From a bacterium (GTDB taxonomy: Bacteria; Patescibacteriota; Dojkabacteria; GCA-016699595), in NCBI GenBank assembly GCA_016699595.1, contig CP064982.1:379829-443828 (forward strand): a stretch of 64,000 nt of DNA. The letters are read 5' to 3'. The notes under the pieces are model-generated. The model worked only from the letters and a program-made list of their open reading frames with translations. It was not told where the DNA came from and searched no databases. Shown piece after piece: positions 1-39,327 of this stretch (positions within the stretch are counted from its first letter, which is position 1; each line of letters begins with the position of its first letter). Position numbers and translations under genes: made by a program.

Positions 1-3000
1 AAAGATACGCTAAGTTAATCTCAACGACCACAGATCCCAAAGAAAGACAAAAATTAAGTCAACAACTAAAGAAAACTAAAGAGAAATTAAATAGCGATGT
101 TGCGAATGCGAAAGTAGATATTGAAAATCATTATAATGAAGAGAGAAAGATTGTTGCAGAAAACAAAAGAGCTATTGAAATTCTAGTAGCGAGAAACATA
201 GACTATGCAAGTTTGCCTCCAATGGAATTACTGGCAATTACTTGGCTTATCGAAGAAGAAATAAACTTTGGAGCAAATAGTGAAATTTTGAAATCAGCTC
301 AAAATTTGGCAAAGTATTATACAGTAACTAGGCAAGCAGATAGACAATTCAATGACCTTCAAGGACGACTCGGCATAAGGGATGTACATAAATTAGGAAA
401 TATACCCCCATGGGTCAATTTGACAAGAAGGGAAGTCGTTGATGATCAAATCAAAACATTCAGAGATTGGGAATTTTCAAATGGACATGACAAAGCAGAG
501 AGAGTAGCGCAATTGATTTCACCAACTAGCTTCGACAAAAATTATGCAACTGTTTTAACTATTAGGGAGAATGAAATTGCAAAAATGAAGGATTTGAAAA
601 TAATTGATGATGATGGATATTACTCTTTGCAAAGAATTGCAGATCTTAATGAGTTGAAAAAGAAGGATGCAAAATCATTAACTGCAGAGGAACTGGCTAC
701 TTTGCAAGTATTTGCAGACATAGAAGACGAATTGACAGCAAATGTCATTACAACTGAAGCAAGAGCTAGACTTACACCGTCAGCTAAAGCAAATTTACTT
801 GAAGAACTAGGTAGAAACGATTTGAAATGGTTACTTACTAGAAAAGGCGAACAAGGGTTAGACCCAAATGAAGATATAGCAGAAAGAATGATTCGCGAAA
901 TGATCGCGCAAGGTTCAAGAGATGTAGGACTCTATATGGCAAAAGTACAAAGAGAAATCACTGGACCGGATGATTCTGGCAAATATATTGAAGATATAGT
1001 TGCACAAACAAAGGAAAGTTTCTTACCTACATACCTAAAGACTCAAGACCTCGCTAGTAGGGCTCATGCAGTTGCCAAGGAAAATGTTGCGTTGCTTATG
1101 CAACAAAATTCTTTCAAAAAATCATACCCCGAACTGCAAGCAAATGACTTGGTTCGTGACATTGCAGAAGCATTGGAAGTTTCGTACAGATGCATTTTGG
1201 AAAGTGAAATGATAGTTCCATCATCAGTTACACAAATCAAACTTACTGGTGATGGACAGATAGCAACTATGATTGAAAGAATTTTGAAAGAAGGTCAAGG
1301 AGCTACTCAACAGATAGAAGATATAGTACATGATGCTTCAAATACACAGAGCATGAGTCCTGATCCTGATGACACTGAATCTCCAACTGCAATCAAAGCC
1401 AAAAAAAGTGTTCCTCAAAAACATGCGGAAGTATTGGTACGATCTTTCCATCAAGCTCCAAGTCCTGACATGATGAGACTTGCATTCCCGGAGTACAATA
1501 GCTCTATAGTTTCAGGTATTAGATTGGATACTGAAGAAGCAAGGAAGCATTATGCAGAGAAATTCGATGTTAGCAGTAATGTGGAAATGGCAACCACCAT
1601 TGCTAGCTACACTTCCGCAAATAACTTAACAAATTACCTAGTATCTACTTTCAAAGGTGGAGGTGCTTGGTTAATTTACAAAAAAAACAAACAGGAACAA
1701 AAAAAAGCTGAAAAGAAACTTAAGTTTTGGGCAGCAATAAACTCTATCCCGATTTTAGGCAATATCAGTGAGATTCATGATGCTATAACGGAACTTGGGA
1801 TCATTTTACCACAACAATGGCAATCCGAACTGAGATCTTATGGCTCAAAGATGTACAAGGATGGAAAAGTCAATCCGTTGTTGCCAACATTGCTTTCAGT
1901 GAGAAATGGCAGGAATGAACCTATTCTAACGAAATATGCATATACCTTGGGTGTACTATCAGAAAATAGTAACGATCATTTTTCCAAAGTACTTGGTAAC
2001 TTCCTTGGAACCAGAGATGAAAGAGCCAAATACAAAGGAGGATTTGCAGACATTCCTTTTCTTACAAAGAGTGTCGTTTGGATCAAGCCAAAAATGCAAA
2101 TCAAGGATGGAAGTGGAAATTTACTCAAAGATGAATTTGGGAAGCCTTTGAAGTTCAAGAAAGCCTACAAAGAAACTGTTGATGGACCATTGAAGAGATC
2201 ATGGTCTGTAAATCAAAGATTTACAGATCCTTTGTTACAAAGCCTACGGTTGGTTGACTACAGAGCTGTAAATATTGGAGGAGAAAATGTCATTATGAGG
2301 GTCAATGTCCCTATGAATGCTCTCAGCAATGCATATCATAGATCTTTTGATGCAGTACTTACTAGGATCTTCGATCCTGGGACGAATTTACCTTATAGTC
2401 AAAACAGCGTTATAGGAACTATCAACAATGGAAGGGTGCAAGTAAACAAAAGGCTGAAACTCGGAGACATTGACAACAAGACAAAAGTTACAAAACTACA
2501 AGGGATAATAATTGATACAAAAACAAATAAAAGAAGATCTACTGTAGATATTATTTTTAGAATAGCTATTCATATTGTAAAAGAAGTCATAGTCGAAACG
2601 GTGAAAGAAGTTGGTCAATTTGTAGACCATAGGTTTGATAATGTAAAGCAATACAGGAGGTTGAAATCTTACTTCAGAGAAGCCTCAACTTCATCAGTTG
2701 AACTTTCAAGATTTGCACTAAATAGATTGAAAACAAGCATGAACCTTTTGCGCGTAACTGCTGGTGGAATTGCAAAGTCTCTACCTGCAGGTGCTGTTGG
2801 TAGTGTAGCTGGTGGATATTTAGGAAGCTATCTAAATCCTATCCTTTCACCTATTTTAGGTAACAATGCAGGTACTATAGTTGGAGCAACAATCGGAGGT
2901 ACATTGTCAGCATCTGCCAAGTTTTCTGAATATATGTTTTCTCCACAGTATAAACTGGGTGGATATAGTAGGTTTCAAAAGGCAGTAATGGAGTTCAATG

Positions 3001-5993
3001 GTGCAGAATGGAAGATGATAGATGGGAAAATGCAGTTTGTTGGCAAAGATAAGTTATTGAATATATACAGGTCTCTTCCTGATAATTATTTTTCAATACT
3101 ATCTTCATCAGGCAAAGTCATCAATTCTACAAGTGTAATTCATACAATAAGAGAAGGAATTGATTCAGGGACTATGAGATTGAATGCTCTTGGTGAGATT
3201 GAAAGCATTGATAGAGCTACTGGTAAGTGGATACTGCACGAATTTTCCTCAGGTGAATCTTTGAAGTTAGTAACAAATGCTGAAGGCATTCGGTCTCTTG
3301 CAAACAGGTCACTCGAATTTGTTGATGGAAAGATTGTATCAAAGGGATTCGTGAATTTGTTTGACAATATGAGTGGTAAATGGGGACTTGTACCTCTAGG
3401 TGCTGGACTTGGAGCTGCTGCCGGTACTGGAGTGGCATACTTGATAAACAAGGGTTTTGATGCAGTAGGATTAGGATTTATAAATTTACCTTATGCTCAA
3501 TTTGCTATTGTAGGAACTATTATTGGCGGTACCGCCCCGATAATTATAAACTGGGGATTGCCAAACATAGCAAATGCATTAAGTCCAGAAAGCTCTTTCG
3601 GTAAGTATATGGGTAGGCTTTCTAGGTTCACTCAAGATCCAGCATCTCTATTGATACAAAACAAAGCAAACTCATTTTACCGGTGGCAAAGTGCTTTATC
3701 TTCAGCCAAAAGTGGCATGTATGTATGGTCATCTGCGACATTGCTTGCTGAAATATTCAATTGGGGAAATCCCTTAGTCACAGGACTTGTTGTTGGAGCT
3801 GGAGCATTCGCTCTTGATTATGGAGTCAGAACATTGGTAGTTCCAAGACTTACTGCATTTCGTGCTATGCTCGCAGAAACTGCGCTTGGTAAATTTGGAT
3901 CTGCACTTGTACACTTGCCTGTTATGGATTCTATTGGACTAGGTTGGGAATACATTAAGTTTAATGATATGTTTGTCCAACCATATCTAACTAGTGGATT
4001 GAATCTAAAAACCTACCTTTTTGGTGGAGATTATACACAAGTTAAATTGTTACATTTACAAGATGGTATAAACATGGGTGGTTTGGTCGATGTGAATGGA
4101 CAGTTACTTACTTTAGATGAAGCCAGAGCACAAGGAATAAACCTAAATGGTGCACGAGTAGAGTATAGAGAAACTAGATCCTTTCAAGGTATACTCAGGA
4201 TGCCTTGGGTCAATCTCATATTTCTTGGAAGTGCATGGACTATACTTGGATATCAATATGCCATAGCAAAGAGTTCTTTTGTTTTTTTCAGAACATTGGC
4301 AGAGAAGTTTCCAAATTTAAGAAGGTTGCAACCTTTGGTTGGACAACAAGGATCTTCGATTTGGGGACGATTTGTACAAAGTAGAGCTGGACAAATATTT
4401 GTAGAAAGTAGACCTGTGACATTTTTCACAAGAATTCCTGCCGGACTATCTTCATGGGGAGCAGAGGCAACTGCAAATATGGGAAATTTCGGAAGATTTG
4501 CGCGATTTGCAACTGGAAGTGTTTGGAAATTTATCAAAGGAGTTGTAAATGCTATTAATCCTCTTACTTGGAGCCTTAATAGTCTGACTATGGGTAACCT
4601 TACAGGTGGATTCATAGGAGCTGCAATTGGAACGGCTATACTAACTGCATTGGGAGTACCTATGGTGCCTGCAGTCATAATTGGGGCAGCAATTGGTGGC
4701 ACTATTTTTAGTTATATAGGAGCTGGCATCGCCTTGTCAATAGTTTCAGCAACAGGGCCAATAGGTTTTCTTCTCAGCACATTAATTGTATCTGTTACTA
4801 CTTCCATAGGTCATGTGCTTGGTGGTTTAGTGGGAAATTTTATAGACAAAACATTTTTTGCTGCAGCTCGGGCTGCACAAGCTTCTATGCATGCATTGAC
4901 AAGTTTAGTCAGCATATTCTCGCTTGCCAAAGCGATCCTTGATGGAGATTGGAGCAAAACTATCATAAATATCATGCAGATGGCTATGGGAGCAGTTGTA
5001 GTTGCTCCTGTAGTTGTTGTTGGAGTAGTGATAATCCCTCAGTTGATAACTCCAACTACCCTTCCTCTTAGCCAATTATTATTACTACCCCCATCTCTAT
5101 ATGTAACAAAAAATGTCAATGTAGGAAGCTATGATCCGTCTGTGCCATCTATAAAATATACTATAACTATCAATCCAACTGATGGCCCAATGCTAGTAAA
5201 TTTAATTGATGATCCAGCAAGCACTGTTTTGATACATCCTATAAGTGGCAGTGGCTGGGATTTTGCAACTATTGATGCCTTAACAAATAATATAGTTGTA
5301 GCCGGACTTCTGAATGAAAGCGTATCTTTAACTTATGAACTGATGCTTGCTGATACTTTAGAAAATTTAAGTGGTATATGTAATAATTTAACTGGGACCA
5401 CACGAACATTAAACGACCAAAATGCAACTGATCAAAGTGTAGTATCCAGTGTATGTGTAGATAAATATGGCAACCCTATTGCAGATCCTACTCACCCAAA
5501 TGTGATTCTTGCCGGACTTCCTATGAATCCGTCTTCTGTCACAAATATGGCTTCATGTTTTGGAGGATCAGCTGGACATCATGGGATAGATCTCTCTACT
5601 CAAGCTGCTGCAACTGAACCGATTTATGCTGTAGCTGATGGTACTATAGTGTACTCAGGTTCTGCTTATGATCCCAATTATTGTACATTTATGAATGGTC
5701 ATGTATATTGCGGAGGTTATGGCAGACTTATCAAGCTAAGGTTAAATAGTGGAGAGTATGTTTACTATGGTCATATAAACGAGGAGTATGTCTCAGTCGG
5801 TGATACAGTTGCAAAGGGAGACATCCTTGGATTGTCAAACAACCGAGGCACTTCCACTGGATCTCATTTACACTTGGAAGTTAGAGGGTCTGATGATAAT
5901 GTATCAAACCAACTAGACCCTTGTGAAATTTTCACCACAGATGGTGGACAGAGTATATGTAGTTCATATGCAGGCGGAGATCGTTGCATATAA
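1..5993 (+). CDS. Giant membrane-associated protein (5' end outside window; >1,990 aa) with Gly/Ala-rich hydrophobic central region and C-terminal M23/LytM metallopeptidase domain
   Basis: The frame of ORF 213..5993 stays open back to position 3, so the TTG at 213 is not the real start and the CDS is 5'-partial. The C-terminus has the M23 motifs HHGID (HxxxD) and SHLHLE (HxH). Residues ~850-1650 are long Gly/Ala/Ile-rich predicted TM/glycine-zipper segments. Confidence 0.8.
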   Translation, partial: RYAKLISTTTDPKERQKLSQQLKKTKEKLNSDVANAKVDIENHYNEERKIVAENKRAIEILVARNIDYASLPPMELLAITWLIEEEINFGANSEILKSAQNLAKYYTVTRQADRQFNDLQGRLGIRDVHKLGNIPPWVNLTRREVVDDQIKTFRDWEFSNGHDKAERVAQLISPTSFDKNYATVLTIRENEIAKMKDLKIIDDDGYYSLQRIADLNELKKKDAKSLTAEELATLQVFADIEDELTANVITTEARARLTPSAKANLLEELGRNDLKWLLTRKGEQGLDPNEDIAERMIREMIAQGSRDVGLYMAKVQREITGPDDSGKYIEDIVAQTKESFLPTYLKTQDLASRAHAVAKENVALLMQQNSFKKSYPELQANDLVRDIAEALEVSYRCILESEMIVPSSVTQIKLTGDGQIATMIERILKEGQGATQQIEDIVHDASNTQSMSPDPDDTESPTAIKAKKSVPQKHAEVLVRSFHQAPSPDMMRLAFPEYNSSIVSGIRLDTEEARKHYAEKFDVSSNVEMATTIASYTSANNLTNYLVSTFKGGGAWLIYKKNKQEQKKAEKKLKFWAAINSIPILGNISEIHDAITELGIILPQQWQSELRSYGSKMYKDGKVNPLLPTLLSVRNGRNEPILTKYAYTLGVLSENSNDHFSKVLGNFLGTRDERAKYKGGFADIPFLTKSVVWIKPKMQIKDGSGNLLKDEFGKPLKFKKAYKETVDGPLKRSWSVNQRFTDPLLQSLRLVDYRAVNIGGENVIMRVNVPMNALSNAYHRSFDAVLTRIFDPGTNLPYSQNSVIGTINNGRVQVNKRLKLGDIDNKTKVTKLQGIIIDTKTNKRRSTVDIIFRIAIHIVKEVIVETVKEVGQFVDHRFDNVKQYRRLKSYFREASTSSVELSRFALNRLKTSMNLLRVTAGGIAKSLPAGAVGSVAGGYLGSYLNPILSPILGNNAGTIVGATIGGTLSASAKFSEYMFSPQYKLGGYSRFQKAVMEFNGAEWKMIDGKMQFVGKDKLLNIYRSLPDNYFSILSSSGKVINSTSVIHTIREGIDSGTMRLNALGEIESIDRATGKWILHEFSSGESLKLVTNAEGIRSLANRSLEFVDGKIVSKGFVNLFDNMSGKWGLVPLGAGLGAAAGTGVAYLINKGFDAVGLGFINLPYAQFAIVGTIIGGTAPIIINWGLPNIANALSPESSFGKYMGRLSRFTQDPASLLIQNKANSFYRWQSALSSAKSGMYVWSSATLLAEIFNWGNPLVTGLVVGAGAFALDYGVRTLVVPRLTAFRAMLAETALGKFGSALVHLPVMDSIGLGWEYIKFNDMFVQPYLTSGLNLKTYLFGGDYTQVKLLHLQDGINMGGLVDVNGQLLTLDEARAQGINLNGARVEYRETRSFQGILRMPWVNLIFLGSAWTILGYQYAIAKSSFVFFRTLAEKFPNLRRLQPLVGQQGSSIWGRFVQSRAGQIFVESRPVTFFTRIPAGLSSWGAEATANMGNFGRFARFATGSVWKFIKGVVNAINPLTWSLNSLTMGNLTGGFIGAAIGTAILTALGVPMVPAVIIGAAIGGTIFSYIGAGIALSIVSATGPIGFLLSTLIVSVTTSIGHVLGGLVGNFIDKTFFAAARAAQASMHALTSLVSIFSLAKAILDGDWSKTIINIMQMAMGAVVVAPVVVVGVVIIPQLITPTTLPLSQLLLLPPSLYVTKNVNVGSYDPSVPSIKYTITINPTDGPMLVNLIDDPASTVLIHPISGSGWDFATIDALTNNIVVAGLLNESVSLTYELMLADTLENLSGICNNLTGTTRTLNDQNATDQSVVSSVCVDKYGNPIADPTHPNVILAGLPMNPSSVTNMASCFGGSAGHHGIDLSTQAAATEPIYAVADGTIVYSGSAYDPNYCTFMNGHVYCGGYGRLIKLRLNSGEYVYYGHINEEYVSVGDTVAKGDILGLSNNRGTSTGSHLHLEVRGSDDNVSNQLDPCEIFTTDGGQSICSSYAGGDRCI

Positions 5994-6014
5994 GTTTCGA
6001 AACAACCAAACGTT

Positions 6015-7007
6015 ATGAAAAATAGTTATTCATCACCAAAATATTATATTGCACTTTTAGTCATTCTTGTTGCGATTGCTACGATACTTGGTTTGTACTT
6101 GTACATTACTATAAATCCAAATAACAACGGTCAAAAAACTTACGTTGTGACATCAACAACCCAATCATTTTTCAATCAAAAATCAGTAAAAAAAGTTCCA
6201 GATAGCTATAAATTTTCTAGTTCAAAGTTAGAAGACACTATAAGTATACCTCTAGATTTGAAAAATATTGAAGTTAGCAAGAAATGCGACATAAATATTT
6301 ATGATTATTTCAATGACAAATATCACACACCTAAGCAAGCGTTTTCAAATGGTCAATTTATTCGAATTACAAATGAATATGAGTTGAATATGCAAGATGA
6401 GTCCAAAATTAAAACTATTTCAATGAAAAATCTGAAAGTGCAAGATAATCTTGCTAATGTAAATAAGGTTAAAGATATTGATATCTATATAAGAGAAATC
6501 GAAAAGAAGGCATTTGCAAGATATAAGGAAATATTTGAAATCGAAAATCCGGAATGCGCAAGCAGTTTTTCTGAAACAAACTTTGACTACTCTTTTAGCT
6601 TTGGCAAAGGAATAGGGATGGAGATTGGACTAGGCACTAAAGACAATTGGAATATACTAAGTATTACTTTGTATCAAAAGTATGATTCATATAAGTTTCT
6701 TGATGAATTTACTGTTCTGGGTTTGTACACATTTGATAGTTATGGTAATTTATACAATGAGTATTATCCATATTTTTCAAAAAATGTTTATGAATTTCAA
6801 CCTACAACTAACTTTGAATCAAACAATTCTACTTTTGTTTTGAAAGATATAATTCGAGATTCCATTACAGCTTCAGATAACTCAAGTATTCCAAACGAAA
6901 TGAATATAAGTAGCTATGAATTTATCTACATGATGTCGAATGGCAAAATAAAACCTTTTTTGAAAATTGATGCTGACTACACTAGCTTATTTTACGAATT
7001 GAAATGA
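6015..7007 (+). CDS. Hypothetical protein with N-terminal membrane anchor
   Basis: ORF with N-terminal hydrophobic helix (YYIALLVILVAIATILGLYLYI). No recognisable motif. Its last 4 bp overlap the downstream PBP gene. Confidence 0.5.
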   Translation: MKNSYSSPKYYIALLVILVAIATILGLYLYITINPNNNGQKTYVVTSTTQSFFNQKSVKKVPDSYKFSSSKLEDTISIPLDLKNIEVSKKCDINIYDYFNDKYHTPKQAFSNGQFIRITNEYELNMQDESKIKTISMKNLKVQDNLANVNKVKDIDIYIREIEKKAFARYKEIFEIENPECASSFSETNFDYSFSFGKGIGMEIGLGTKDNWNILSITLYQKYDSYKFLDEFTVLGLYTFDSYGNLYNEYYPYFSKNVYEFQPTTNFESNNSTFVLKDIIRDSITASDNSSIPNEMNISSYEFIYMMSNGKIKPFLKIDADYTSLFYELK

Positions 7008-8773
7008 AGTTAAAACTACTTTTCCTAAAAACTTTTTTCATTGTTTTTACATTCCTGATTTTAGCTTTTCTTTTTCGTTGGCAAATAATTGATCACAATT
7101 ATTTTTCAAAGTTAGCCGAACAAAGATTTGTAGAATATGTAACTTCAGGAGAAAGAGGAAAAATTATTGCACATGATGGGACAGTCCTTGTATACAATGA
7201 AAATGTATGGGATGTATATGTTTATAAACCAGAACTAGAAATTGCTGAAAAGATACAGAAAGTCAAAGTGAATAATGAATCTTTTGAGGTGCAAAAACAA
7301 ACGAGGAAAGAGTTTGTAGAAAAAGTTGCAGCAATATTGAATGTATTTCCACAAGAGATTGAAGAAAAAATAAATAGTGACGGAAATTACATAAAAATTG
7401 CTAGCCAAATAGACTTGAGCACAAAAAATGCTTTGGAGTTTCTACCTGGCAACTCCCAATCTGGTTACTACCTAAAGGGAATCAACTTCGAAGAGACATT
7501 TAAGCGAGGATACCCAAATGGCACTTTAGCATCAAATATACTAGGTTACTTAGGCTATAGTGACAAACAATCTTTAGTTGGAACTCATGGGATAGAACAA
7601 GCATGGAACGGAGATCTATCACCTCAATCTGGTTATCAAAAAATAGAAATTGACATTGATGGAAATCCAATCATTGCTGGTGAAAGTGAAACATTAAATT
7701 ATAAAAACGGAAGTGATATCAAACTAAGTATTGACCCCACAATTCAAAGTATTTTGGAGAAGAAGTTGAAAGAAGGTAAGGAAAAGTATCAAGCTGAAAA
7801 TGCTATAGGTATAATAATGGAGCCAAAAACTGGAGACATAAAAGGCATGGCTGTGTATCCTTCCTATGACCCAGCTAAATACAGTGAAGTAACTGACTTG
7901 AAACAGCTGAATAATCTAGCAGTATCAGAATCTTATGAACCAGGTTCAATTGGCAAAGTTTTTACAACTGCCGTAGCTTATGATTTAGGAGTAGCAGATG
8001 AAGATACTGTAGTTGTCGAATCACATCCTGGATGTATAAACATAAACGAATGGAAGATTTGTAATGCGTTGAAAGTGCCTGCCAAAAATTTGACAGTGAA
8101 AACAACATTGATGACTTCAGATAATATTGGTGCATATGGTATAGCAAAGTTAGTTGGAGAAGAAAACTTGAAAAACTATCTCAGAAAGTTTGGTCTTGCC
8201 CAGAGTTTGAATGTAGGATTAGCAGAAGAACAAACAGAATTTTATAATTTTGATAGGAAGTGGCCAGAAGTTGAACTTGCAACATCGTCATTCGGCCAAT
8301 CTTATACACTCACTGCATTACAAATCGTAGATGCATATGCTGCTATAGCAAATGATGGATTGAGAATGAAACCGAAGATTGTAAGTGAAGTTGTATCCGA
8401 AGAAGGTGTGAAGGTAATTGAAAATAAACTTATTGAAACTGTCATAAGTCCAGAAGCTTCACAAAAGACAAATGCTACATTGACCAAAGTATTTGCTGAT
8501 AACTTGAAAAATACTGCAACCAGAGCTCAATACGATATACTTTCCAAGTATAGCTTAGCTGGCAAATCTGGAACAGCACAAATACCAAAAAAAGATGGGA
8601 CTGGTTATGAAGACAATGCAGTAAATTCAACCTATATTGGTTATGATACTTCCTCAGAGAAAAGTTTTGTTATGTTGATCAAACTAACTAAGCCGAAAAT
8701 TGGTAGATTTGCCAATAATAATGTAATGCCACTTTGGTATGATACTTTCATTGAATTGAAAGACCTACTCTAA
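7004..8773 (+). CDS. Penicillin-binding protein, class B transpeptidase (FtsI/PBP2 family)
   Basis: N-terminal TM helix and an SxxK active-site motif (GSIGKVF). Overall PBP dimerisation plus transpeptidase architecture, 589 aa. Confidence 0.8.
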   Translation: MKLKLLFLKTFFIVFTFLILAFLFRWQIIDHNYFSKLAEQRFVEYVTSGERGKIIAHDGTVLVYNENVWDVYVYKPELEIAEKIQKVKVNNESFEVQKQTRKEFVEKVAAILNVFPQEIEEKINSDGNYIKIASQIDLSTKNALEFLPGNSQSGYYLKGINFEETFKRGYPNGTLASNILGYLGYSDKQSLVGTHGIEQAWNGDLSPQSGYQKIEIDIDGNPIIAGESETLNYKNGSDIKLSIDPTIQSILEKKLKEGKEKYQAENAIGIIMEPKTGDIKGMAVYPSYDPAKYSEVTDLKQLNNLAVSESYEPGSIGKVFTTAVAYDLGVADEDTVVVESHPGCININEWKICNALKVPAKNLTVKTTLMTSDNIGAYGIAKLVGEENLKNYLRKFGLAQSLNVGLAEEQTEFYNFDRKWPEVELATSSFGQSYTLTALQIVDAYAAIANDGLRMKPKIVSEVVSEEGVKVIENKLIETVISPEASQKTNATLTKVFADNLKNTATRAQYDILSKYSLAGKSGTAQIPKKDGTGYEDNAVNSTYIGYDTSSEKSFVMLIKLTKPKIGRFANNNVMPLWYDTFIELKDLL

Positions 8774-8809
8774 CTCAAAAAACCTTAAATTTCTTATTTC
8801 TATACAAAA

Positions 8810-9472
8810 ATGACATACTTAATCATCTCTGACTTTCACCTAAATCACAAAGTTTCAACAAAGGAACTAAAATTCTATAAACAATTGTTTTTATCAGTAG
8901 ATAAAATAATTATTAATGGAGATTTTTGGGAAGGGATGAGACCTATTGCAAATATTGATAAGTTTATAAAAAGCCAATGGAATGAATTACTACAGATATT
9001 GAAAGATAAGAGTGCTATTTATATTTTCGGCAATCATGATTTTTATGAAATTGATGAACAAGAAAAAGCACTTTGGTTAACTGAAGCACAAAAAGTATTT
9101 TCCAGTATCAGCCATGAATACAGGCTAAATCTTGGAAACAAAGTTTACAAAATTATACATGGTTCACAATTTAGGCATCCTTTTATGATAAATTCTGCTT
9201 TGTTTGAATATTTGTATTACAAAGTTAGCAAATTGGTTTCAAAAACATTTTTGGGTAGTCGAATTTACAACTTCATTGGTGGCAAGTGGAATAGAAGAAT
9301 CATAGAAACAGTCATACCGACTTTGCAAAGTAATGAAATTTTGATTTGCGGAGATACACATGCTCCAATGAAGTCAGATAGATATATCAACACAGGATTT
9401 AATTTTTCAGGAAATTATGGATACTTAATCCTAACTGATAATTTTGAGAAGTTATACTTTGGCAGAATGTAA
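8810..9472 (+). CDS. Calcineurin-like metallophosphoesterase (LpxH-like)
   Basis: Motifs ISDFHLN, INGDFWEG, IFGNHDF, GDTHAP. Confidence 0.65.
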   Translation: MTYLIISDFHLNHKVSTKELKFYKQLFLSVDKIIINGDFWEGMRPIANIDKFIKSQWNELLQILKDKSAIYIFGNHDFYEIDEQEKALWLTEAQKVFSSISHEYRLNLGNKVYKIIHGSQFRHPFMINSALFEYLYYKVSKLVSKTFLGSRIYNFIGGKWNRRIIETVIPTLQSNEILICGDTHAPMKSDRYINTGFNFSGNYGYLILTDNFEKLYFGRM

Positions 9473-9476
9473 CTTT

Positions 9477-10136
9477 TCAGAATTTGTAAATCAAAATTCC
9501 AATTATAGTTGAGATCAACATAGTTAGCACAAGCATCCACGTCCTCCATCTAAGCCAGCCTTTTGAAGTAATATTTTTACCAACAATTGTAAAGAATATA
9601 GTTGTACTTGCAAAACATGAACTCAAGCAATATGGACAAACTGAGCCAATTACAAAAATTGAGTTATACAATAACCATAAACTAAACATTAGAGCTAAAG
9701 TAACTGGTAGTAGAGCTAAGTTCCATAGTTTTTTGCTTAACTCACGATTGAAAAACTGTATAAATCCAAAAACAAATATCCCAGTATAGTAAATAAACCC
9801 TAAAACTGTATTGTTGAAACCAAATATTTCAGATTGCCACGATTTCATAGTTGGTAAGCAATTGATCACGCTATTTACGGAGCATGGAGGAATGTAATTA
9901 GCATCTTTCAGAAGTTTGATTTCTTCACCAAACAGCATGAAAGAAGCAAATAATCCGAGTATAGCCATAAAGCTCAATATTAGAGGGAAAAAGTACTTAT
10001 CAAATGAAATGAACTTCTTGTTATCTCGAACTTTTGAAAATCGCGAAACTGATTTAGCATACTTTATATCTCCTACTGTTTGTATATTTAGTTTCTTTTT
10101 TAATTTTGACTTTTTTGACATACAGGATTTTAGCAT
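9477..10136 (-). CDS. Vitamin K epoxide reductase (VKOR)-family membrane protein
   Basis: Polytopic membrane protein with a loop Cys pair (CSVNSVINC) and a CxxC in a TM segment (CPYC), as in VKOR homologues. Confidence 0.55.
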   Translation of the reverse strand: MLKSCMSKKSKLKKKLNIQTVGDIKYAKSVSRFSKVRDNKKFISFDKYFFPLILSFMAILGLFASFMLFGEEIKLLKDANYIPPCSVNSVINCLPTMKSWQSEIFGFNNTVLGFIYYTGIFVFGFIQFFNRELSKKLWNLALLPVTLALMFSLWLLYNSIFVIGSVCPYCLSSCFASTTIFFTIVGKNITSKGWLRWRTWMLVLTMLISTIIGILIYKF

Positions 10137-10200
10137 TTACCATTACCATTTCAAAAGACATTTATATTTAGATTCAATGTGTTAAAATTCACATTACTTT

Positions 10201-10278
<78 letters not shown>

Positions 10279-10307
10279 TTCTTCTTTATTTTGCGAAAAG
10301 TATATCT

Positions 10308-11039
10308 ATGAGATATAGAGCCTTGATCCTAAATACTCAGCAGTTCAAAGATAATGATTTACTGATAAAAGTTCTTTTAGATACCGGTGAAAAGATAAAT
10401 GTAAAATCCAAAGCAATAAAGAAGATTACATCTCGTAATTTGACGAAAATTGAAGTTGGCAATTATGTTGAAGTAAATTTAATACAAGGCAAGACTATGC
10501 AAATTCTTACAGAGATAAGAGTTTTGAATAATTTCAATGAGTTGAAAACCTCAGTTGTATCAACTGCTACATGGCTGATTCTAGAAGCTATCCAATTTCT
10601 TCCTGATCTACAAGATATCAGAACTTTTGATATAGCAATTGAAATTTTGACTAAATGTAACGAGCATTCAAAAAATAATCTTGAGTTGATCAGTTATACT
10701 CTTTGCATTTTCTTTGCTGAACTTTTGAAGATCATAGGGGTAACTATAAATTTTGACAATTTTGCAAACAACAATCAAAAAATAAAGAAGACAGATAATA
10801 TTTTTGTAGATTCAAGCTTAGGATTTTGCAGTTACAATTCAGGCATCCAGATAGATGCAACTACATTCAAAGTTATTCGCTTTGTTTCTGATGGTGATTT
10901 TGAACAACTTATTAAAACTAATTTTTCTGCTGACAAAATTTATTTATCTTCAGCTCTAAGTACATTTATATTTTGGTTTGAATCTTTGGTAGCAAGGAAA
11001 CTAAACTCTTATAGACTTTTTGCAACTCGTAGTTTATAA
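10308..11039 (+). CDS. recO: DNA repair protein RecO
   Basis: N-terminal OB-fold-like sequence (MRYRALILNTQQFKDNDLLIKVLLDTGEKINVKSKAIKK) and RecO-like C-terminal region. The ORF-track start at 10221 translates the tRNA, so the start was moved to the ATG at 10308. Confidence 0.5.
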   Translation: MRYRALILNTQQFKDNDLLIKVLLDTGEKINVKSKAIKKITSRNLTKIEVGNYVEVNLIQGKTMQILTEIRVLNNFNELKTSVVSTATWLILEAIQFLPDLQDIRTFDIAIEILTKCNEHSKNNLELISYTLCIFFAELLKIIGVTINFDNFANNNQKIKKTDNIFVDSSLGFCSYNSGIQIDATTFKVIRFVSDGDFEQLIKTNFSADKIYLSSALSTFIFWFESLVARKLNSYRLFATRSL

Positions 11040-11058
11040 TTTCTTGACAAATTCTTAT

Positions 11059-11142
11059 GGAGGGGTCGCATAGTTGGTCTAGTGCACAGTCCTGGAAAGA
11101 CTGCGTTCCAAAAGAACCGGAAGTTCGAATCTTCTCCCCTCC
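11059..11142 (+). tRNA. tRNA-Ser (anticodon GGA)
   Basis: Acceptor GGAGGGG/CCCCTCC, anticodon stem CAGTC/GACTG with loop CTGGAAA, long variable arm (GTTC..GAAC), T-loop TTCGAAT. Confidence 0.85.
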
Positions 11143-11268
11143 GAATTGGAAATATCTAGATAAAATAAAAAATTATCAAAAGGACTTTTCACTTTTAGTT
11201 TTCGAATATCTGTAATATGTGTCTATATTTGAGTTGTTTTGATATTTTTGTGGCTCAATAGTTCTTAC

Positions 11269-11348
11269 ACTATACCAAATAATAATAGTGTATAATATTT
11301 GTATAGATGATATAGGGAATTTAGTCGAACTTCGTATGTCCGAGAGTT
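11269..11348. repeat. Copy A (3' part only) of the ~170-bp AT-rich promoter-like repeat (family F1)
   Basis: CCAAATAATAATAGTGTATAATATTTGTATAGATGATATAGGGAATTTAGTCGAACTTCGTATGTCCGAGAGTT closely matches the copies at 19276, 20890, 21500 and 22213. Confidence 0.8.
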
Positions 11349-11396
11349 ATAATCAATTGACAGGCTAGCTAGAAAGATCTTCAAAGAAAGAGTAAT

Positions 11397-11705
11397 ATGA
11401 ATAATACAATGACAAAACAAAAAAATACCTTACTTATGTCTGTTATCTTAGTTTTGTTGATCCTTACAGTAATTGTAGTTGTCGCCAAAATTTCGCCTTA
11501 TAGATGTTGTGCTTGCCATCCAGATAGATATACTTTGTACCCAATTTCCTTTACGCTTTTTGAAAATCATTGGGCTCAATACATAGATTGTCATTGTCTG
11601 CCCGAAATGGGATGTGTTTTGTCTTTTTGGGTAATTCCGATTGATTTAATAGGATTAGTTGCACTTTTATCTGCAATCTTGTTTCACAAATTGAAAAAGA
11701 AGTGA
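11397..11705 (+). CDS. Small Cys-rich membrane protein (hypothetical)
   Basis: ORF with N-terminal TM helix and several Cys (CCACHPDRY, CHC). No known motif. Confidence 0.4.
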   Translation: MNNTMTKQKNTLLMSVILVLLILTVIVVVAKISPYRCCACHPDRYTLYPISFTLFENHWAQYIDCHCLPEMGCVLSFWVIPIDLIGLVALLSAILFHKLKKK

Positions 11706-11922: not shown

Positions 11923-12621
11923 ATGACAATAAATGATGAAGTTCAAAAAATAATCGAAGAAGTAAATCGCCTCAATCACAAGATTGAGATGGTTTCTAAT
12001 GTAAAATCTGGCAAAGAAGCAACAGTCTATAAAGTTCTTTTAGACGATAAACTTGTGGCAATGAAGGTCTATAAAAAACCAGAAGAGAGATCCTTTAAAA
12101 ATACGGGACAATACTTAATGGGAAAATATTACAAGAAACCATCTGAAAGGAAAGCTGTGGCAAAAGGAAATAAATTTGCTAAAAAATTAAAACACCAAAA
12201 TTGGATTAGAAGAGAATATTTTATGCTTGAAAAGTTATATGAACATGGAGCCAAAATTCCAAAACCCATATTACATATTGAAGATGCTATATTTATGGAG
12301 TTATTAGGAAATCAAGATTTTGTGGCTCCTAGATTGTGCGATGTAATTCTGACAAAAGATGAAGCAGAAAGTGCTTATAAAAAGGTACTTGATACAATGA
12401 TTGTGTTTTGGAATTTTGGCATAGTGCATGCGGATTTATCTGAATACAACATTTTATGGTGGAATAATGAACCTTATATTATTGACTTTCCTCAGGCACT
12501 AGATAAAAAGACTAACCCAAATGTAAATGAAGTTTTGGATAGAGATTTGAGAAATATCACAAACTTTTTTGGCAAATTTATCAAAACTGATTTTGATGAA
12601 ATTAGAAAAGACTTTTCTTAA
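11923..12621 (+). CDS. RIO-type serine protein kinase
   Basis: RIO signature motifs: SGKEATVY (ATP-binding loop), IVHADLSEYNIL (catalytic loop), IIDFPQAL (metal-binding loop). Confidence 0.75.
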   Translation: MTINDEVQKIIEEVNRLNHKIEMVSNVKSGKEATVYKVLLDDKLVAMKVYKKPEERSFKNTGQYLMGKYYKKPSERKAVAKGNKFAKKLKHQNWIRREYFMLEKLYEHGAKIPKPILHIEDAIFMELLGNQDFVAPRLCDVILTKDEAESAYKKVLDTMIVFWNFGIVHADLSEYNILWWNNEPYIIDFPQALDKKTNPNVNEVLDRDLRNITNFFGKFIKTDFDEIRKDFS

Positions 12622-32683: not shown

Positions 32684-33427
32684 TTAATCTGTCATTTTTA
32701 AAGCGTTTATATCAGATTCCCAAGCATCATGGTTTGGGTTCCACCATTCCAAACCCTTAAATTGCAATTTATAATTATCTTTTTTCGAGCTATAACTCCC
32801 CAAATAAAAGTACTTTCTTTTTGTTTGATGTGCCAACTTTATGGAACTTGTCATCATAAACATTCCAAAAGATGTATTTACTAACCCTTGCTCATAGAAA
32901 GGGTATGCATAGTGTAATATTTCCGTGTTTTCAAAACATAGACACATTCCAGCAATTTTATTGGCATTTGTAAACAGAATAAGTGAATTCATATTTAATT
33001 GCCCTTGAAATAACTTTTTTATAACCTGAACTGAGAATAAATTCTCTCCAAACTTTGTCAAATAGAAATCTTTCATCCATTTTCCGAGACTATAATCATA
33101 GCTTTGGTAAGGTAATTTTATTAGATTCATTTCCGTATCAGGAAACTTTGCCAAAATTCTTCGATTTTCAGAAGTGAAAGTAAACTTAGATAAATCAATT
33201 CGTAAAAGTTTCGTAGATTGCATCAGACCATGAGCTTTTCTAGTATATTTGAAGCCTTTGTCATACATATCTGTTGCATCATGCTGATAAGTAACAACTA
33301 TCTCTTTGTAAAATTTATAATCAAACATACAAAAATTATAATACTTTTGTAATAACTTTTTCAAAATAACAGTAATTTGTAATAAAAAAAGCAATTTATC
33401 CAACACTTCCTTCCATACTAAGTTCAA
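32684..33427 (-). CDS. Aminoacyl-tRNA--protein transferase-like protein (ATE1/Bpt family C-terminal domain)
   Basis: C-terminal [26 protein letters not shown] fits the ATE_C YyYLGY...KM.YK...P.E motif. The track start overlaps the sufB end by 32 nt, so the true start is probably the internal ATG at 33328. Confidence 0.45.
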
Positions 33428-34817
33428 TTAACCTATTTAGTTCAACAGCGTATTCCATAGGGAGAGTTTTTGTAATTGGTTCAAGAAATCCTGCAACTAT
33501 CAGATTTTGCGCATCTTTTTCAGATAATCCTCGTGACATCAGGTAATAAATCTGACTTTCGTTTACCTTTCCAGTTGTTGCTTCATGAGCAATAGTTGCA
33601 GTATCATTATCGATTTTCATACTTGGATAAGTATCAGTTTCTGAAATATTGTCAAGTATAAGTGCGTCACAATTTACTTTAACTTTAGCATTTTCTGCAT
33701 TTTTATTTATTCTAACAAGTCCTCGGTAGCTTGTTTTACCTCCAAGCAAACAAACTGATTTTGAATTTATGATTGAGCTAGTATTTCGAGCAGCATGAAT
33801 CATCTTTGCACCATTATCTAAAATCTGTCTATTTATTATATTATTATTTTTTATTTCACCTCTTGCAATTGCCAAACTCAAAACCTCACCATGAGCCTTT
33901 TCTCCAAGGAGTACACAACTTGGATATTTCATCGTAACTTTACTACCTAGATTTCCATCTATCCATTCCATCTTCGCATTCTCGTAAACAAAAGCCCTTT
34001 TTGTTACTAGATTATATACATTTTTACTTCAATTTTGGATTGTAGTATATCGAACTTTACTATTTGGTAGACAAATTATTTCTACTACAGCTGCGTGCAA
34101 AGAATCTGAACTATAAACTGGTGCACTGCATCCCTCTATATAATGCAATTCCGAACCTTCATCAGCAATTATCAAAGTTCTTTCAAATTGTCCCATATTC
34201 TTTGCATTAATTCTGAAATATGCTTGAAGTGGCAATTCAACTTTAACGCCTTTTGGTATATAGATGAAACTTCCTCCTGACCAAACTGCACTATTCAAAC
34301 TTGCGAATTTATTATCTGAGTAAGGAATTACAGTTCCAAAATACTTTTTGAACAATTCTTCATGTTCTCTCAACCCTGAATCAGTGTCTAAAAAAACAAC
34401 ACCAATATCTTTCAGTTTTTTCATTAAACTTCCATAAATAACCTCAGATTCATACTGAGCTTTGACTCCGGCTAGCATTTCTCTTTCAACTTGAGGAATT
34501 TTCAACTTTTCGTAAGTTTCTTTTATTTCATCTGGAAGTAAATCCCAATTGCCAACCTGTGCATCAGTTGGCTTGATATAGTAATAAATATCTTCAAAAT
34601 CAATTGCAGATAGATCAGCACCCCAGCTTGGAATTTGGCGAGCTGTGAAATGTTCAAAAGCTTTCAATCTATATTCAAGCATCCAAGATGGTTCTTGTTT
34701 CATTCCAGAAATCTTTCTAACTATATCTTCAGACAAACCTTTTTCAGGTTTATAGACATAATTTTCAGGCATAGAAAAGCCTTCTTTATATTCTGTTTGG
34801 AAATTTAAGTCTTGCAA
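33396..34817 (-). CDS. sufB: Fe-S cluster assembly protein SufB, interrupted by an in-frame TGA at 34029-34031 (minus strand)
   Basis: ORFs 34029..34817 (SufB N-terminal 262 aa) and 33396..33971 (SufB C-terminal 191 aa, ending ...[22 protein letters not shown]) are in the same frame. Only a TGA stop separates them and there are no other stops. The joined length of 474 codons fits full-length SufB. Confidence 0.85.
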
Positions 34818-35886: not shown

Positions 35887-36798
35887 TTACATTTCTTTCA
35901 AGACATCTCTAAGTATGGCTGCTTTTTCAAAATACATTTGATCAGCAAAAAGCTCCATCTGCAACTTCAATTCGGTTTTCAAAAGCCTCTTTTCCTTGTT
36001 ATTCATAACCTTGTACTTAGCTATAATTTCATTCGGATCGATGTTCATCACTTTTGCTTCAATGTCTACAGGATTTTCCGATCGAGTCAAAATCGCAGTG
36101 GAATTTATTTCCTTCATAACTGACTTTGGAACAATATGATGCTGAATATTGTAATTCTCTTGAATTTCTCTTCTTCTATAAGTTTCATTAATCGCAAAGA
36201 TCATCGAATCTGTCAAATGATCTGCATACATCAAAACTTTGCCCGACTCATGTCTTGCAGCACGACCTATAGTTTGAATCAGACTTGTTTTTGACCTAAG
36301 GAACCCTTCCTTGTCTGCATCCAAAATTGCAACTAATGAAACTTCAGGTACATCCAGCCCTTCTCTGAGCAAATTTATCCCAACAACCACATCATATACT
36401 CCCAACCTAAGATCTCGTAAAATTTCAACTCTCTCTATTGCATCTAGATCAGAATGGAGATACTGAACCTTGATATTCTTCTCCTTCAAATATTCTGTCA
36501 ATTCTTCTGACATTCTTTTGGTCAAAGTAGTTACAAACACCCTTTGTTTCTTTTCTACAACTAAAGTAATTTCAGATATTAAGTCAATGATTTGTGAAAA
36601 CAAGTCTCTTTGAGGTTTAATAATTCTATGTTTTACATTTTCTATCAAAGTAGAATTTTCTATTTCAAATCTCAAAGTGGAAAAGTTTTGAGAATCAATT
36701 GGCCTAATCTCAATCTCGGGATCAAGAAGACCGGTAGGTCGAATTATCTGTTCAACTATTCCTTCATAATTTTTATCTAAATGATTTTTTTTATCCAT
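35887..36798 (-). pseudogene. uvrB: uvrB 3' fragment (C-terminal half of excinuclease ABC subunit B only)
   Basis: Protein aligns to UvrB from about residue 395 onward ([12 protein letters not shown] ... [18 protein letters not shown] ... [30 protein letters not shown] ... C-terminal UVR motif [11 protein letters not shown]). The N-terminal ~390 aa (ATP-binding, beta-hairpin) are absent. Only 117 bp separate it from the next, unrelated gene. Confidence 0.7.
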
Positions 36799-36915: not shown

Positions 36916-39327
36916 ATGAGAACGATAAAAAAATCATCAGATATTATTATGACATTGATACTTTTGTTTGTTTTTTTTAATGTTAATGCCTCTGCTGCAA
37001 TAAATTACTTTATTTCAGGAGAAGTTGGAGGAAATAGCACTACATCTAGATTGGAAACTCAAAACCTGATGAATTCATGGAGCAGTGAAGCAGATAGGCT
37101 AGGATGCGATATTGGGCCAGCTAGTATTTCAAGTCCATTTATAGGAAATACTATGAATATAAGTTCAAATGGTATTCCCATGACTATTACGACAAGAAAT
37201 CAAAATGATAATTTTTATGGCACTTTAGGAAATAATGTAGATATTTTCACTAGCGCTACTTTACAGTCAAATTCACCACGACCCGCCAATTTTTATAATA
37301 CATCATCTCAACCACCTTACTGGGCAGATACAGCAGGTAATGCAACTACTAGAAATGCAGTATTATTTGAATTCACTTCACCTATCAGAGGATTTGGTGC
37401 TTGGTTTGGCGATCTTGAGACTAGTAACTTAGGTACTGAGGCTATTATCAGAGTATTTGACAATGCGGGAAATCAAATTGGACCTGACCATGCTATTCCA
37501 GCAGATACATCTATATCTGGTGTACCTGGTAGCTGTGGAGGATCATTTGTAGGTTGTGGTAATTCTACAACTAGATTTGTAGGATTTTGGAGCTTACCTT
37601 CTGATAATGTTTACAAAGTATTAGTTGTAGTTGGTGACGATGATGTAGGTGGAAATGGCTACTCAGAGAGGCTTTCTTTTATAGGTCCAATGATTCCGAA
37701 TAATTGTGGATATAGTGTAGGTAATCAGGTATGGAATGATACAAACAATAATGGCATTTATGAATCAGGTGAACTAGGAATACCTGGAGTTACTTTAAAT
37801 TTATATAATGATTTGGACAATTCAAACTCCATAAGCTCAGCAGACATGATCGCAAGTGATTTAAATGGAAACTTAGTGAGTTCAATACAAACTGATTCAA
37901 ACGGGAAGTATTTGTTTGAAAATTTATTGAGTGGAAACTACATAGTAAGCATAGATAAATCGACCGTACCTATGCAATATGGCATTAGCTCAATTTTCAC
38001 TGATTCAGATAATGATATAAACAATGATAACAACGGACTATTTGGAACCACATTTATGCCAAATTATTCATCAAATGCAATTAATCTTTCTCTTAGAAAT
38101 GAGCCTGTAAACGATCAAGATACTTTGCTTAATGGAGTCCCTATATTGTTAGGTCATGATAATGATAGTACATCAAACCTTACTGTTGATTTTGGTTTTT
38201 TCAATCAGCCAAAAATCACGATAAATAAAATTGTTGAAAATGGTAGCCTTGGAACTTTGGATGTAACTAATTTTCCATTGAAACTAGTGAACAATATAAC
38301 TTCTGAAGAAGTCAATATAATCAGCGGACAACTCTATTACTTGCCAGTTGGTGAATGGAAATTAGTAGAAACCACAAATTCAAATTATACTGGTTCTATT
38401 TATTGTTCGAACTCAAGTGAGTATGAAGCTTGGTCAAGTGAAGAAGATATATTTGGCGTAAATACTTTTGAGTCAACTTACGATCTGCCTATCTTAGAGG
38501 CCAATAGCACAACTAGCTGTGATCTAACAAATACATTTAACCCAGCACACATAATTTTTACTAAACAAGTTGTTGGGGGATCAAATTTACCAAATGACTT
38601 TAGTTTCAATCTAACAAATTCTATAGATACTCAAACAATTGTTAATCCGAAAAACATACATATTGATGAGCAAATCGAAATCGTTGGTGGAAATTATACG
38701 ATTGATGAAAATAATGCAGTAAACTACAATCCAACTTATGTATGTACAATTGGCAATTATATTGATCAAGATGAAGAGTTAGTCTTCACAACTAGAATAA
38801 CTACTTATGGAAATGAATTTGAAATTTTGCCAGGTGAAATTGCAAAATGTAATGTCACCAATACTTACATATCAAATAATTTGAAGATCGAAAAGACTAG
38901 TAACCAATCTTACTTCACAAAATCAGGTGATAAACTGGACTATCTATACAAGGTTACAAATTTAGGAAATTATGATATTTCTGATTTGAAAGTCTTTGAT
39001 AACAAAATCTTAGATATAAAATGTCCAAAAGTTGCGTTGATTGTAAACGAATCCGTAGTGTGCAATGGTGAATATTTTGTGACACAAGATGATGTAAAAA
39101 ACAAAAGCATTACTAATGTTGCCTATGCAACAGCTAAGTCTATAAATGGCATTTCCATTAGTTCAGTCGAAGTAAATTTAAAATTGAATCTAAAAAACGG
39201 AAATATCTTGGCAGTTACAGGAAATAACATTAGTAATACATATATTGGTATAAACTTATTTGTAATTGCGATATTATTGCTATTACTAAATCGTCTATTC
39301 AAAACAAGAGTGTTAGTGGTTGAGTAA
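36916..39327 (+). CDS. Secreted cell-surface protein with SdrD-B/Cna-B-type domain and LPXTG-like (LAVTG) sortase sorting signal
   Basis: Signal peptide (MRTIKKSSDIIMTLILLFVFFNVNASA). SD-repeat B-domain motif GNQVWNDTNNNGIYESGELGIPGVTLNLYND ... DSNGKYLFENLLSGNYIV. C-terminus LAVTG + hydrophobic stretch IGINLFVIAILLLLL + basic tail NRLFKTR. Confidence 0.65.
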   Translation: MRTIKKSSDIIMTLILLFVFFNVNASAAINYFISGEVGGNSTTSRLETQNLMNSWSSEADRLGCDIGPASISSPFIGNTMNISSNGIPMTITTRNQNDNFYGTLGNNVDIFTSATLQSNSPRPANFYNTSSQPPYWADTAGNATTRNAVLFEFTSPIRGFGAWFGDLETSNLGTEAIIRVFDNAGNQIGPDHAIPADTSISGVPGSCGGSFVGCGNSTTRFVGFWSLPSDNVYKVLVVVGDDDVGGNGYSERLSFIGPMIPNNCGYSVGNQVWNDTNNNGIYESGELGIPGVTLNLYNDLDNSNSISSADMIASDLNGNLVSSIQTDSNGKYLFENLLSGNYIVSIDKSTVPMQYGISSIFTDSDNDINNDNNGLFGTTFMPNYSSNAINLSLRNEPVNDQDTLLNGVPILLGHDNDSTSNLTVDFGFFNQPKITINKIVENGSLGTLDVTNFPLKLVNNITSEEVNIISGQLYYLPVGEWKLVETTNSNYTGSIYCSNSSEYEAWSSEEDIFGVNTFESTYDLPILEANSTTSCDLTNTFNPAHIIFTKQVVGGSNLPNDFSFNLTNSIDTQTIVNPKNIHIDEQIEIVGGNYTIDENNAVNYNPTYVCTIGNYIDQDEELVFTTRITTYGNEFEILPGEIAKCNVTNTYISNNLKIEKTSNQSYFTKSGDKLDYLYKVTNLGNYDISDLKVFDNKILDIKCPKVALIVNESVVCNGEYFVTQDDVKNKSITNVAYATAKSINGISISSVEVNLKLNLKNGNILAVTGNNISNTYIGINLFVIAILLLLLNRLFKTRVLVVE

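Follow-up and report, generated by a model that had tools for sequence, protein, structure and literature searches.

A giant membrane protein with a C-terminal M23 peptidase domain and no detectable relatives outside it, encoded upstream of a penicillin-binding protein gene in a Dojkabacteria genome

A stretch of 64,000 nucleotides from a bacterium of the Dojkabacteria (Patescibacteriota; assembly GCA_016699595.1, contig CP064982.1, positions 379,829 to 443,828 of the forward strand), referred to here as the window, opens inside a very large gene whose product ends in a peptidase domain of the M23 family. The giant gene occupies positions 1 to 5993 of the plus strand. Its reading frame is uninterrupted from base 3 to a TAA codon at 5991-5993, which gives 1,996 codons and 1,996 residues inside the window, with the 5' end beyond it. 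The probability that 1,996 codons would remain open by chance is about 2e-73, and the other two plus-strand frames over the same DNA carry a stop-codon load of 7-9%. The coding signal is native in all seven segments of 300 codons into which the gene was divided, and no internal repeats were found in it at the DNA or protein level. The earliest candidate start within the window is a TTG at 213, and 70 coding codons precede it. The probability that these 70 codons would stay open by chance is about 0.003, and their codon-usage log-odds are 0.293 per codon, as compared with 0.301 for the whole gene and about -0.95 for the off-frames. Because these codons are open and score like the gene as a whole, the true start is almost certainly located before the window, and the protein is thus longer than 1,996 residues. 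The 1,926-residue entry with a TTG start in the open reading frame (ORF) track is an under-call. An earlier note, made from the letters of this DNA without database searches, had already taken the protein to be cut at the window edge and longer than 1,926 residues, and this was correct.

The Peptidase_M23 domain (Pfam PF01551) spans residues 1858-1967 (5574-5903, plus strand). Its Pfam score is 68 bits where the cut-off is 28.7 (E=8.4e-19), and the match extends from position 2 to position 94 of the 96-position profile. The motifs of the family are all present, namely HxxxD as HHGID (H1859, codon 5577-5579; D1863, 5589-5591), a central histidine in GHINE (H1924, 5772-5774), and HxH as HLHLE (H1955, 5865-5867; H1957, 5871-5873). 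All five catalytic or zinc-binding residues line up with the motifs of LytM, Csd1, and zoocin A, and their columns are invariant in an alignment of 48 homologues. The LytM counterparts are H210, D214, H260, H291, and H293. An AlphaFold2 (AF2) model of the domain computed with the homologue alignment reached a predicted local distance difference test score (pLDDT) of 80-97. When this model was compared with the Protein Data Bank (PDB) using Foldseek, Csd1, LytM, lysostaphin, and StM23 were matched at E~2e-10 with target TM-scores of 0.67-0.78, and Csd1 and LytM shared the lowest E-value. Csd1 is also the best PDB match by sequence (5j1l, deposited as TagE; E=4e-14, 33% identity). A Cys-containing insert of 13-15 residues (DPNYCTFMNGHVYC) sets the domain apart from the aligned solved M23 structures, which lack it. 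Sequence and model together confirm the predicted identity of the C-terminus as a catalytically complete M23 zinc endopeptidase of the LytM/lysostaphin type. The earlier note had called it a bona fide LytM/M23 domain, and the catalytic residues, whose degeneration would have spoken against this, are intact.

The residues that precede the peptidase make up three parts, of which the N-terminal one (residues 1-925; 3-2777, plus strand) is hydrophilic, with 23-36% Lys, Arg, Asp, and Glu, a single Cys, and no homologue. A single-sequence AF2 model of residues 1-930 is mostly helical to about residue 560 at low confidence (mean pLDDT 36.7). Its trustworthy part is limited to the first ~40 residues, which form a long helix, and the model was unusable for a fold search. 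The second part is a polytopic, glycine-zipper-rich region (residues 926-1680; 2778-5042, plus strand). Hydrophobic uncharged stretches are found here at residues 926-972, 1127-1149, 1154-1195, 1251-1271, 1400-1422, 1513-1614 (102 residues), 1624-1642, and 1653-1680, amounting to about 11 hydrophobic segments, and the hydrophilic loops between the stretches are 55-154 residues long. Gly and Ala make up 22% of this region as compared with 12% of residues 1-925, and GxxxGxxxG motifs occur seven times, whereas composition-preserving shuffles contain 1.3+/-1.2 and only 2 of 1,000 shuffles reach seven. A Gly/Ala-rich hydrophobic region had been described at residues ~850-1650 of the shorter ORF, with many membrane segments, and it coincides with residues 926-1680 once the offset of 70 codons is applied. 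The third part (residues 1681-1857; 5043-5573, plus strand) consists of a Pro-rich linker, into which the last uncharged run extends (from residue 1653 to 1702), followed by an acidic region to which no fold was assigned. It has three Cys and is modeled by AF2 at low confidence. By eye, residues ~1700-1800 have a DUF11/DUF7507-like look. This resemblance was rejected, as BLASTP against the DUF7507 protein encoded elsewhere in the window gave E=0.46 and there was no Pfam match.

Charge and cysteine content differ along the chain. The 30 residues that precede the first membrane segment (896-925) contain five Lys and Arg as compared with one Asp or Glu, and the loops at 896-925, 1196-1250, and 1423-1512 are rich in Lys and Arg while the loop at 1272-1399 is neutral. 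The last 316 residues contain 30 Asp and Glu as compared with 11 Lys and Arg, which makes their net charge -19. Of the nine Cys in the protein, eight are located within its last 204 residues. The number of Cys is even in nine of the ten proteins with an N-terminal anchor that the window encodes, and a gene for a protein of the VKOR family, which functions in disulfide-bond formation, is located 3.5 kb downstream of the giant gene (9477-10136, minus strand). The VKOR gene is cited as context and is not claimed to be a part of the system. The excess of Lys and Arg before the first segment suggests that the N-terminal region is cytoplasmic. The C-terminal module is probably outside the cell because its Cys are clustered, it is acidic, a VKOR gene is present, and anchored proteins tend to have even Cys numbers, and it probably contains disulfide bonds. 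A topology with the N-terminus inside, about 11 segments, and the C-terminus outside would fit these features, with most of the large loops in the cytoplasm and one of ~128 residues outside.

The giant gene opens a run of four genes on the plus strand. Its stop codon is followed after 21 nucleotides by a gene for a 330-residue protein that has two Cys and one membrane anchor, at its N-terminus (6015-7007; IPJ91_01870, QQR93190.1, annotated as hypothetical). The stop codon of this gene overlaps the start codon of the next by four nucleotides (ATGA). The latter encodes a class-B penicillin-binding protein (PBP) with PBP_dimer and Transpeptidase domains (7004-8773; "penicillin-binding protein 2" at NCBI). 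A metallophosphoesterase gene (8810-9472) begins 36 nucleotides after the PBP gene and is the last of the run. A scan that may not suit this organism found no terminator-like sites within 5000-11500. Because of the 21-nucleotide gap, the ATGA overlap, and the lack of a terminator-like site, the four genes probably form one transcription unit. The 330-residue protein had no homologue or known family in searches and profile scans. It had been described in the earlier note as a membrane protein that could be a partner of the giant protein or an immunity protein. The membrane anchor stands, although there is one N-terminal hydrophobic segment and not several. A partner or immunity role is without support, since no family is known and the ATGA overlap ties the protein at least equally to the PBP. 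The PBP, the 330-residue protein, the phosphoesterase, and the isoleucyl-tRNA synthetase (IleRS) encoded in the window are identical to deposited IPJ91_ proteins (QQR93190-93192, QQR93225).

Beyond this run are the VKOR gene, a tRNA gene, and RecO. As had been stated, no phage structural genes follow the giant gene. The remaining 58 kb of the window contains no phage genes and no genes for the type IV secretion system (T4SS) components VirB4, the type IV coupling protein (T4CP), or pilin, and the other annotated genes have housekeeping functions. Genes for peptidoglycan metabolism in the window are those for the class-B PBP, a Mur ligase, Ddl, Alr, VanY, and an LD-carboxypeptidase. The GC content of the giant gene (37-39.5%) exceeds that of its surroundings (about 32%), which hinted at a foreign origin. 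This is unsupported because the GC content of third codon positions (0.265 as compared with 0.245+/-0.038 in other genes) and the synonymous-codon score (0.174 as compared with 0.195+/-0.052) are native, and the excess is located in codon positions 1 and 2, i.e., in Gly and Ala codons. Genes are on the plus strand up to 28582 and nearly all are on the minus strand from 28651 to about 61000, and the GC skew, positive before this point, is negative after it. Such convergence resembles a replication terminus, and the giant gene is about 23-28 kb away from it.

Several other observations were made in the window. The ORF-track start of RecO (TTG 10221) overlaps tRNA-Thr (10205-10279), and an ATG at 10308 is the likelier start. 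At 11923-12621, this bacterial genome has a gene for an atypical protein kinase of the RIO1 type (Pfam RIO1, E=9e-42). In SufB (33396-34817, minus strand), one stop codon at 34029-34031 divides the gene into two ORFs of the same frame, at the position of a Trp that is conserved in E. coli SufB. UGA recoding was considered and rejected because in-frame TGA is nearly lacking in the other real genes of the window; a nonsense mutation or an assembly base error seems the likelier cause. The UvrB ORF (35887-36798, minus strand) is 303 residues long and has the Helicase_C and UvrB C-terminal domains, while the N-terminal half is missing. Next to it, at 36916, begins an unrelated plus-strand gene (36916-39327) for a probable surface protein of 803 residues with SdrD_B/DUF7507 domains and 10 Cys. 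A second probable surface protein (46637-48199, 520 residues) has CAP (cysteine-rich secretory protein) and Ig-like domains.

Relatives of the giant protein were sought in large sequence collections. A word-indexed search with residues 1-1816 against 5.8 billion sequences found nothing. An exhaustive phmmer search with residues 1-1200 against 1.84 billion cluster representatives returned three fragments from the same species (87-225 residues, 94-99% identical), all from Logan assemblies. Residues 1-1816 had no matches in 50,697 phage records (tblastn) or in IMG/VR, and tblastn with the non-M23 part against 72,556 plasmid records was empty as well. JGI metagenomes scanned with residues 1-700 yielded nothing, nor did a search of GTDB genomes for related loci that was based on the PBP. 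Five sub-segments were scanned against Pfam, PHROG, and NCBIfam at E<=10, and nothing beyond noise emerged outside M23; PDB sequence matches were confined to the M23 domain. A match of phrog_34863 (function unknown) to the glycine-zipper hairpin at residues 918-969 (E=0.001) was treated as compositional. Residues 1680-1996 retrieved only small generic M23 proteins (174-478 residues, 29-42% identity), which aligned through the M23 domain. Residues 1-1816 are therefore, as far as these sequence searches reach, without a detectable relative apart from near-identical fragments of the same species. For IleRS from the same window, the best named relatives are from Nomurabacteria and Dojkabacteria (42-45% identity) and unnamed ones reach 60-73%. 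Taken with the genome size, a GC content of 32%, and the gene content, these relatives point to Patescibacteria.

The giant protein did not retrieve itself in protein searches, although the NCBI entries of its neighbors are present. Going by the locus tag of the 330-residue neighbor, the giant gene should be IPJ91_01865. Possible reasons for the missing self-match are that the deposited record treats the gene as a pseudogene or that these collections lack the protein. Short Logan contigs from a sister strain (Logan proteins P0001-P0003) contain pieces of the giant gene (window positions 1209-2148 and 3297-3635) at 94-100% identity. Compared with the window, the reading frame of these pieces is shifted at several points, in some cases within A-rich runs, and the frameshifts may be assembly errors or mark a disrupted allele. 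A further Logan contig (L001, SRR30164251) matches window positions 7637-10310 at 99.25% identity without gaps.

A long protein with a charged helical N-terminal part, glycine-rich hydrophobic segments, and an M23 domain has the build of a phage tape-measure protein (TMP). On this explanation, the gene would encode a TMP or a virion-borne ejection protein, and the other genes of the prophage, or of its remnant, would be located upstream of the window. TMPs with M23 and about four predicted membrane segments are documented, for example gp47 of Basilisk-like phage (PMC6145125). A PHROG family annotated as TMP (phrog_10030, 2,105 positions) has M23 at positions 1911-2014, collinear with residues 1856-1969 of the giant protein, and the phage internal M23 proteins 9k2v and 9m7n are among its PDB matches. 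Lack of relatives is also common among TMPs. However, matches in PHROG, Pfam, NCBIfam, and the PDB are limited to M23, and elsewhere only phrog_167 appears at E<=10 (E=0.54). The phage and IMG/VR searches described above were empty as well. In siphophages the TMP gene precedes the genes for Dit, Tal, and the baseplate, whereas here the PBP operon begins after 21 nucleotides and gives way to housekeeping genes, with no tail genes over 58 kb. TMPs usually have 2-4 hydrophobic segments, whereas the giant protein has about 11, separated by globular loops of 90-150 residues, and the eight Cys in its acidic C-terminal module suit export and oxidation outside the cell better than folding of a virion protein in the cytoplasm. 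Together with the native codon use, these points make a phage origin very improbable. The preference of the earlier note for a cellular protein over an ordinary TMP agrees with the downstream genes, the codons, the absence of a TMP profile outside M23, and the linkage to the PBP operon. The "polyvalent proteins" of phages and conjugative elements were likewise set aside. None of their domains is found here, and their description mentions neither M23 nor transmembrane segments (PMC5512222).

A second alternative is that the protein belongs to a T4SS. It would then be a highly diverged polytopic channel of the VirB6 type fused to a wall hydrolase of the VirB1 type, working in the chromosomal T4SS-like machinery of Patescibacteria or in another integrated mobile element, where the hydrolase would make an opening in the wall for the apparatus. 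A polytopic region followed by an external peptidoglycan hydrolase is a fitting build for such a component, and in the T4SS of monoderm bacteria the VirB6-like and hydrolase genes adjoin (conG-cwlT of ICEBs1, orf15-orf14 of Tn916). T4SS are encoded on chromosomes across Patescibacteria, where VirB1-like proteins often contain Peptidase_M23 and where few or no VirB6 proteins are found in Microgenomatia and Gracilibacteria, a pattern described as "suggesting extreme sequence divergence" (PMC12102498). A peptidase encoded beside virB4 is essential in S. epibionticum (PMC12102498), and the giant paralogues of VirB6 in Anaplasma reach 4,322 residues (PMC7648143). These precedents favor a T4SS component, and the absence of homologues would suit one that evolves fast. 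Against this, no TrbL/VirB6, PrgH, or other T4SS profile of Pfam or NCBIfam matched any of the five sub-segments at E<=10; a match to conj_memb_RcgA (E=0.042, 12 bits) was dismissed as noise. The 58 kb downstream has no VirB4, T4CP, or pilin gene, and the codon use is again native. The gene is also within about 23-28 kb of the terminus-like switch, while T4SS loci of Patescibacteria are often near the origin (PMC12102498). We consider a T4SS component unlikely, though it deserves to be taken seriously.

Cultivated Patescibacteria are episymbionts, and the genome studied here is 762 kb in size. A third explanation, which we also hold to be unlikely while giving it real weight, is a weapon or attachment device directed at a host, in which the M23 domain is exposed or released upon contact and cuts host peptidoglycan for access or nutrients. 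Large surface proteins are characteristic of such episymbionts, and in Absconditicoccaceae about half of the proteins that exceed 1,500 residues have membrane or signal segments, and a function in host interaction has been proposed for them (PMC13059738). A likeness to the giant surface proteins of episymbionts had been noted earlier. It holds as a fair analogy with these proteins (PMC13059738) and does not extend to homology. The lysostaphin/LytM-like catalytic centre is complete, and extreme sequence isolation is expected of a protein in an arms race. However, the tether from the last membrane segment to the M23 domain is about 170 residues long, which is short for reaching the wall of another cell unless the domain is cleaved free. 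Profile scans detected no adhesion domains. The operon partner PBP has a function in the cell's own wall, and no effector-immunity pair is recognizable, as the 330-residue neighbor has no known family.

The explanation that we favor, tentatively and with a little less than even confidence, is a cellular, membrane-tethered peptidoglycan endopeptidase that is part of a giant, lineage-restricted polytopic protein encoded by a native chromosomal gene. A hydrophilic and largely helical N-terminal part of at least 925 residues would be located in the cytoplasm. It would be followed by about 11 glycine-zipper-rich membrane segments whose loops are mainly cytoplasmic apart from an external one of ~128 residues, and by an acidic, disulfide-stabilized external module of 316 residues with the peptidase at its end. 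The tethered peptidase would cut peptide stems or cross-links of peptidoglycan next to the membrane of the cell that produces it. The enzyme would stay near the producer's wall because the tether is only about 170 residues long. Because the gene is probably co-transcribed with that of a class-B PBP, cutting would most likely be coordinated with wall synthesis. The protein could act as a hydrolase that makes space for new material or as an opener of the wall for envelope-spanning structures, with the cytoplasmic and membrane parts serving as a scaffold or a regulator.

Several points weigh against this assignment. Its main weakness is that a core factor of wall growth should have recognizable orthologues, since relatives of this organism (60-73% identity for IleRS) are in the databases, and isolation of this kind is more typical of fast-evolving interface proteins or mobile-element proteins. 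An autolysin offers no explanation for the ~1,680 extra residues. The topology is read from hydrophobicity, charge, and Cys counts, and co-transcription from spacing and a terminator scan perhaps unsuited to the organism. The window covers the downstream side of the gene only, which leaves room for a phage or mobile-element origin.

A bolder proposal, which we rate as rather improbable, is that the protein is a hitherto undescribed trans-envelope device made of a single polypeptide, with a large cytoplasmic domain, a glycine-zipper channel of about 11 helices, and an external M23 cutter. With it, an episymbiotic cell of the candidate phyla radiation (CPR) would breach its own wall, that of its host, or both, and form an intercellular conduit. 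If true, the device would be a cellular counterpart of TMPs and of the VirB6-VirB1 pair while being unrelated to both in sequence. The growth of the wall and the breaching of host walls by ultra-small Patescibacteria are both poorly understood. As a candidate that can be tested, the giant protein may represent wall hydrolysis that is coupled to synthesis, or a trans-envelope machine that pierces the wall. About 1,700 intact, constrained residues without a detectable relative among 1.8 billion protein clusters mark lineage-specific envelope biology that has not been sampled. If a phage tail module or a T4SS locus is found upstream, the protein would be an ordinary though highly diverged member of one of those groups.

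The known systems that the giant protein resembles differ in which of its parts they share. The TMPs with M23 are similar in length and have a charged helical part, glycine-rich hydrophobic segments, and a muralytic M23 domain, as in gp47 of Basilisk-like phage (PMC6145125). The giant protein differs from TMPs in having more hydrophobic segments, globular loops, a Cys-rich acidic end, housekeeping neighbors, and no similarity outside M23. Another TMP with this M23 and hydrophobic-segment build is pb2 of T5. In the T4SS, VirB6-like proteins (PrgH/ConG) and VirB1-like hydrolases (PrgK, TraG of pIP501, CwlT) likewise combine a polytopic protein with a membrane-anchored hydrolase, and the M23 domain occurs in PrgK. 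A single polypeptide that joins a polytopic part to a hydrolase, and a soluble N-terminal region of at least 925 residues, both seen in the giant protein, are undescribed in these families, to none of which it has a profile match, and no T4SS gene is found in the 58 kb downstream. The large surface proteins of Absconditicoccaceae are also from CPR bacteria, exceed 1,500 residues, and have membrane segments (PMC13059738). They carry FN3, integrin-like, and concanavalin-like adhesion domains, whereas none is detectable in the giant protein, which has a hydrolase and a multi-pass core instead.

The closest likeness in the catalytic domain is to the housekeeping M23 enzymes, such as LytM of S. aureus, Csd1 of H. 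pylori, MepM of E. coli, and ShyA of V. cholerae. These have the same catalytic domain, fold, and HxxxD...H...HxH motifs, and the giant protein is, like them, genomically linked to wall-synthesis genes. They are 130-450 residues long and are secreted or anchored by a single segment, whereas the giant protein has ~1,680 additional residues, about 11 membrane segments, and an orphan N-terminal region, and its M23 domain has the 13-15-residue insert with Cys. What is new at this locus is a predicted membrane-anchored M23 hydrolase joined to an orphan cytoplasmic and polytopic part of ~1,680 residues that is without precedent.

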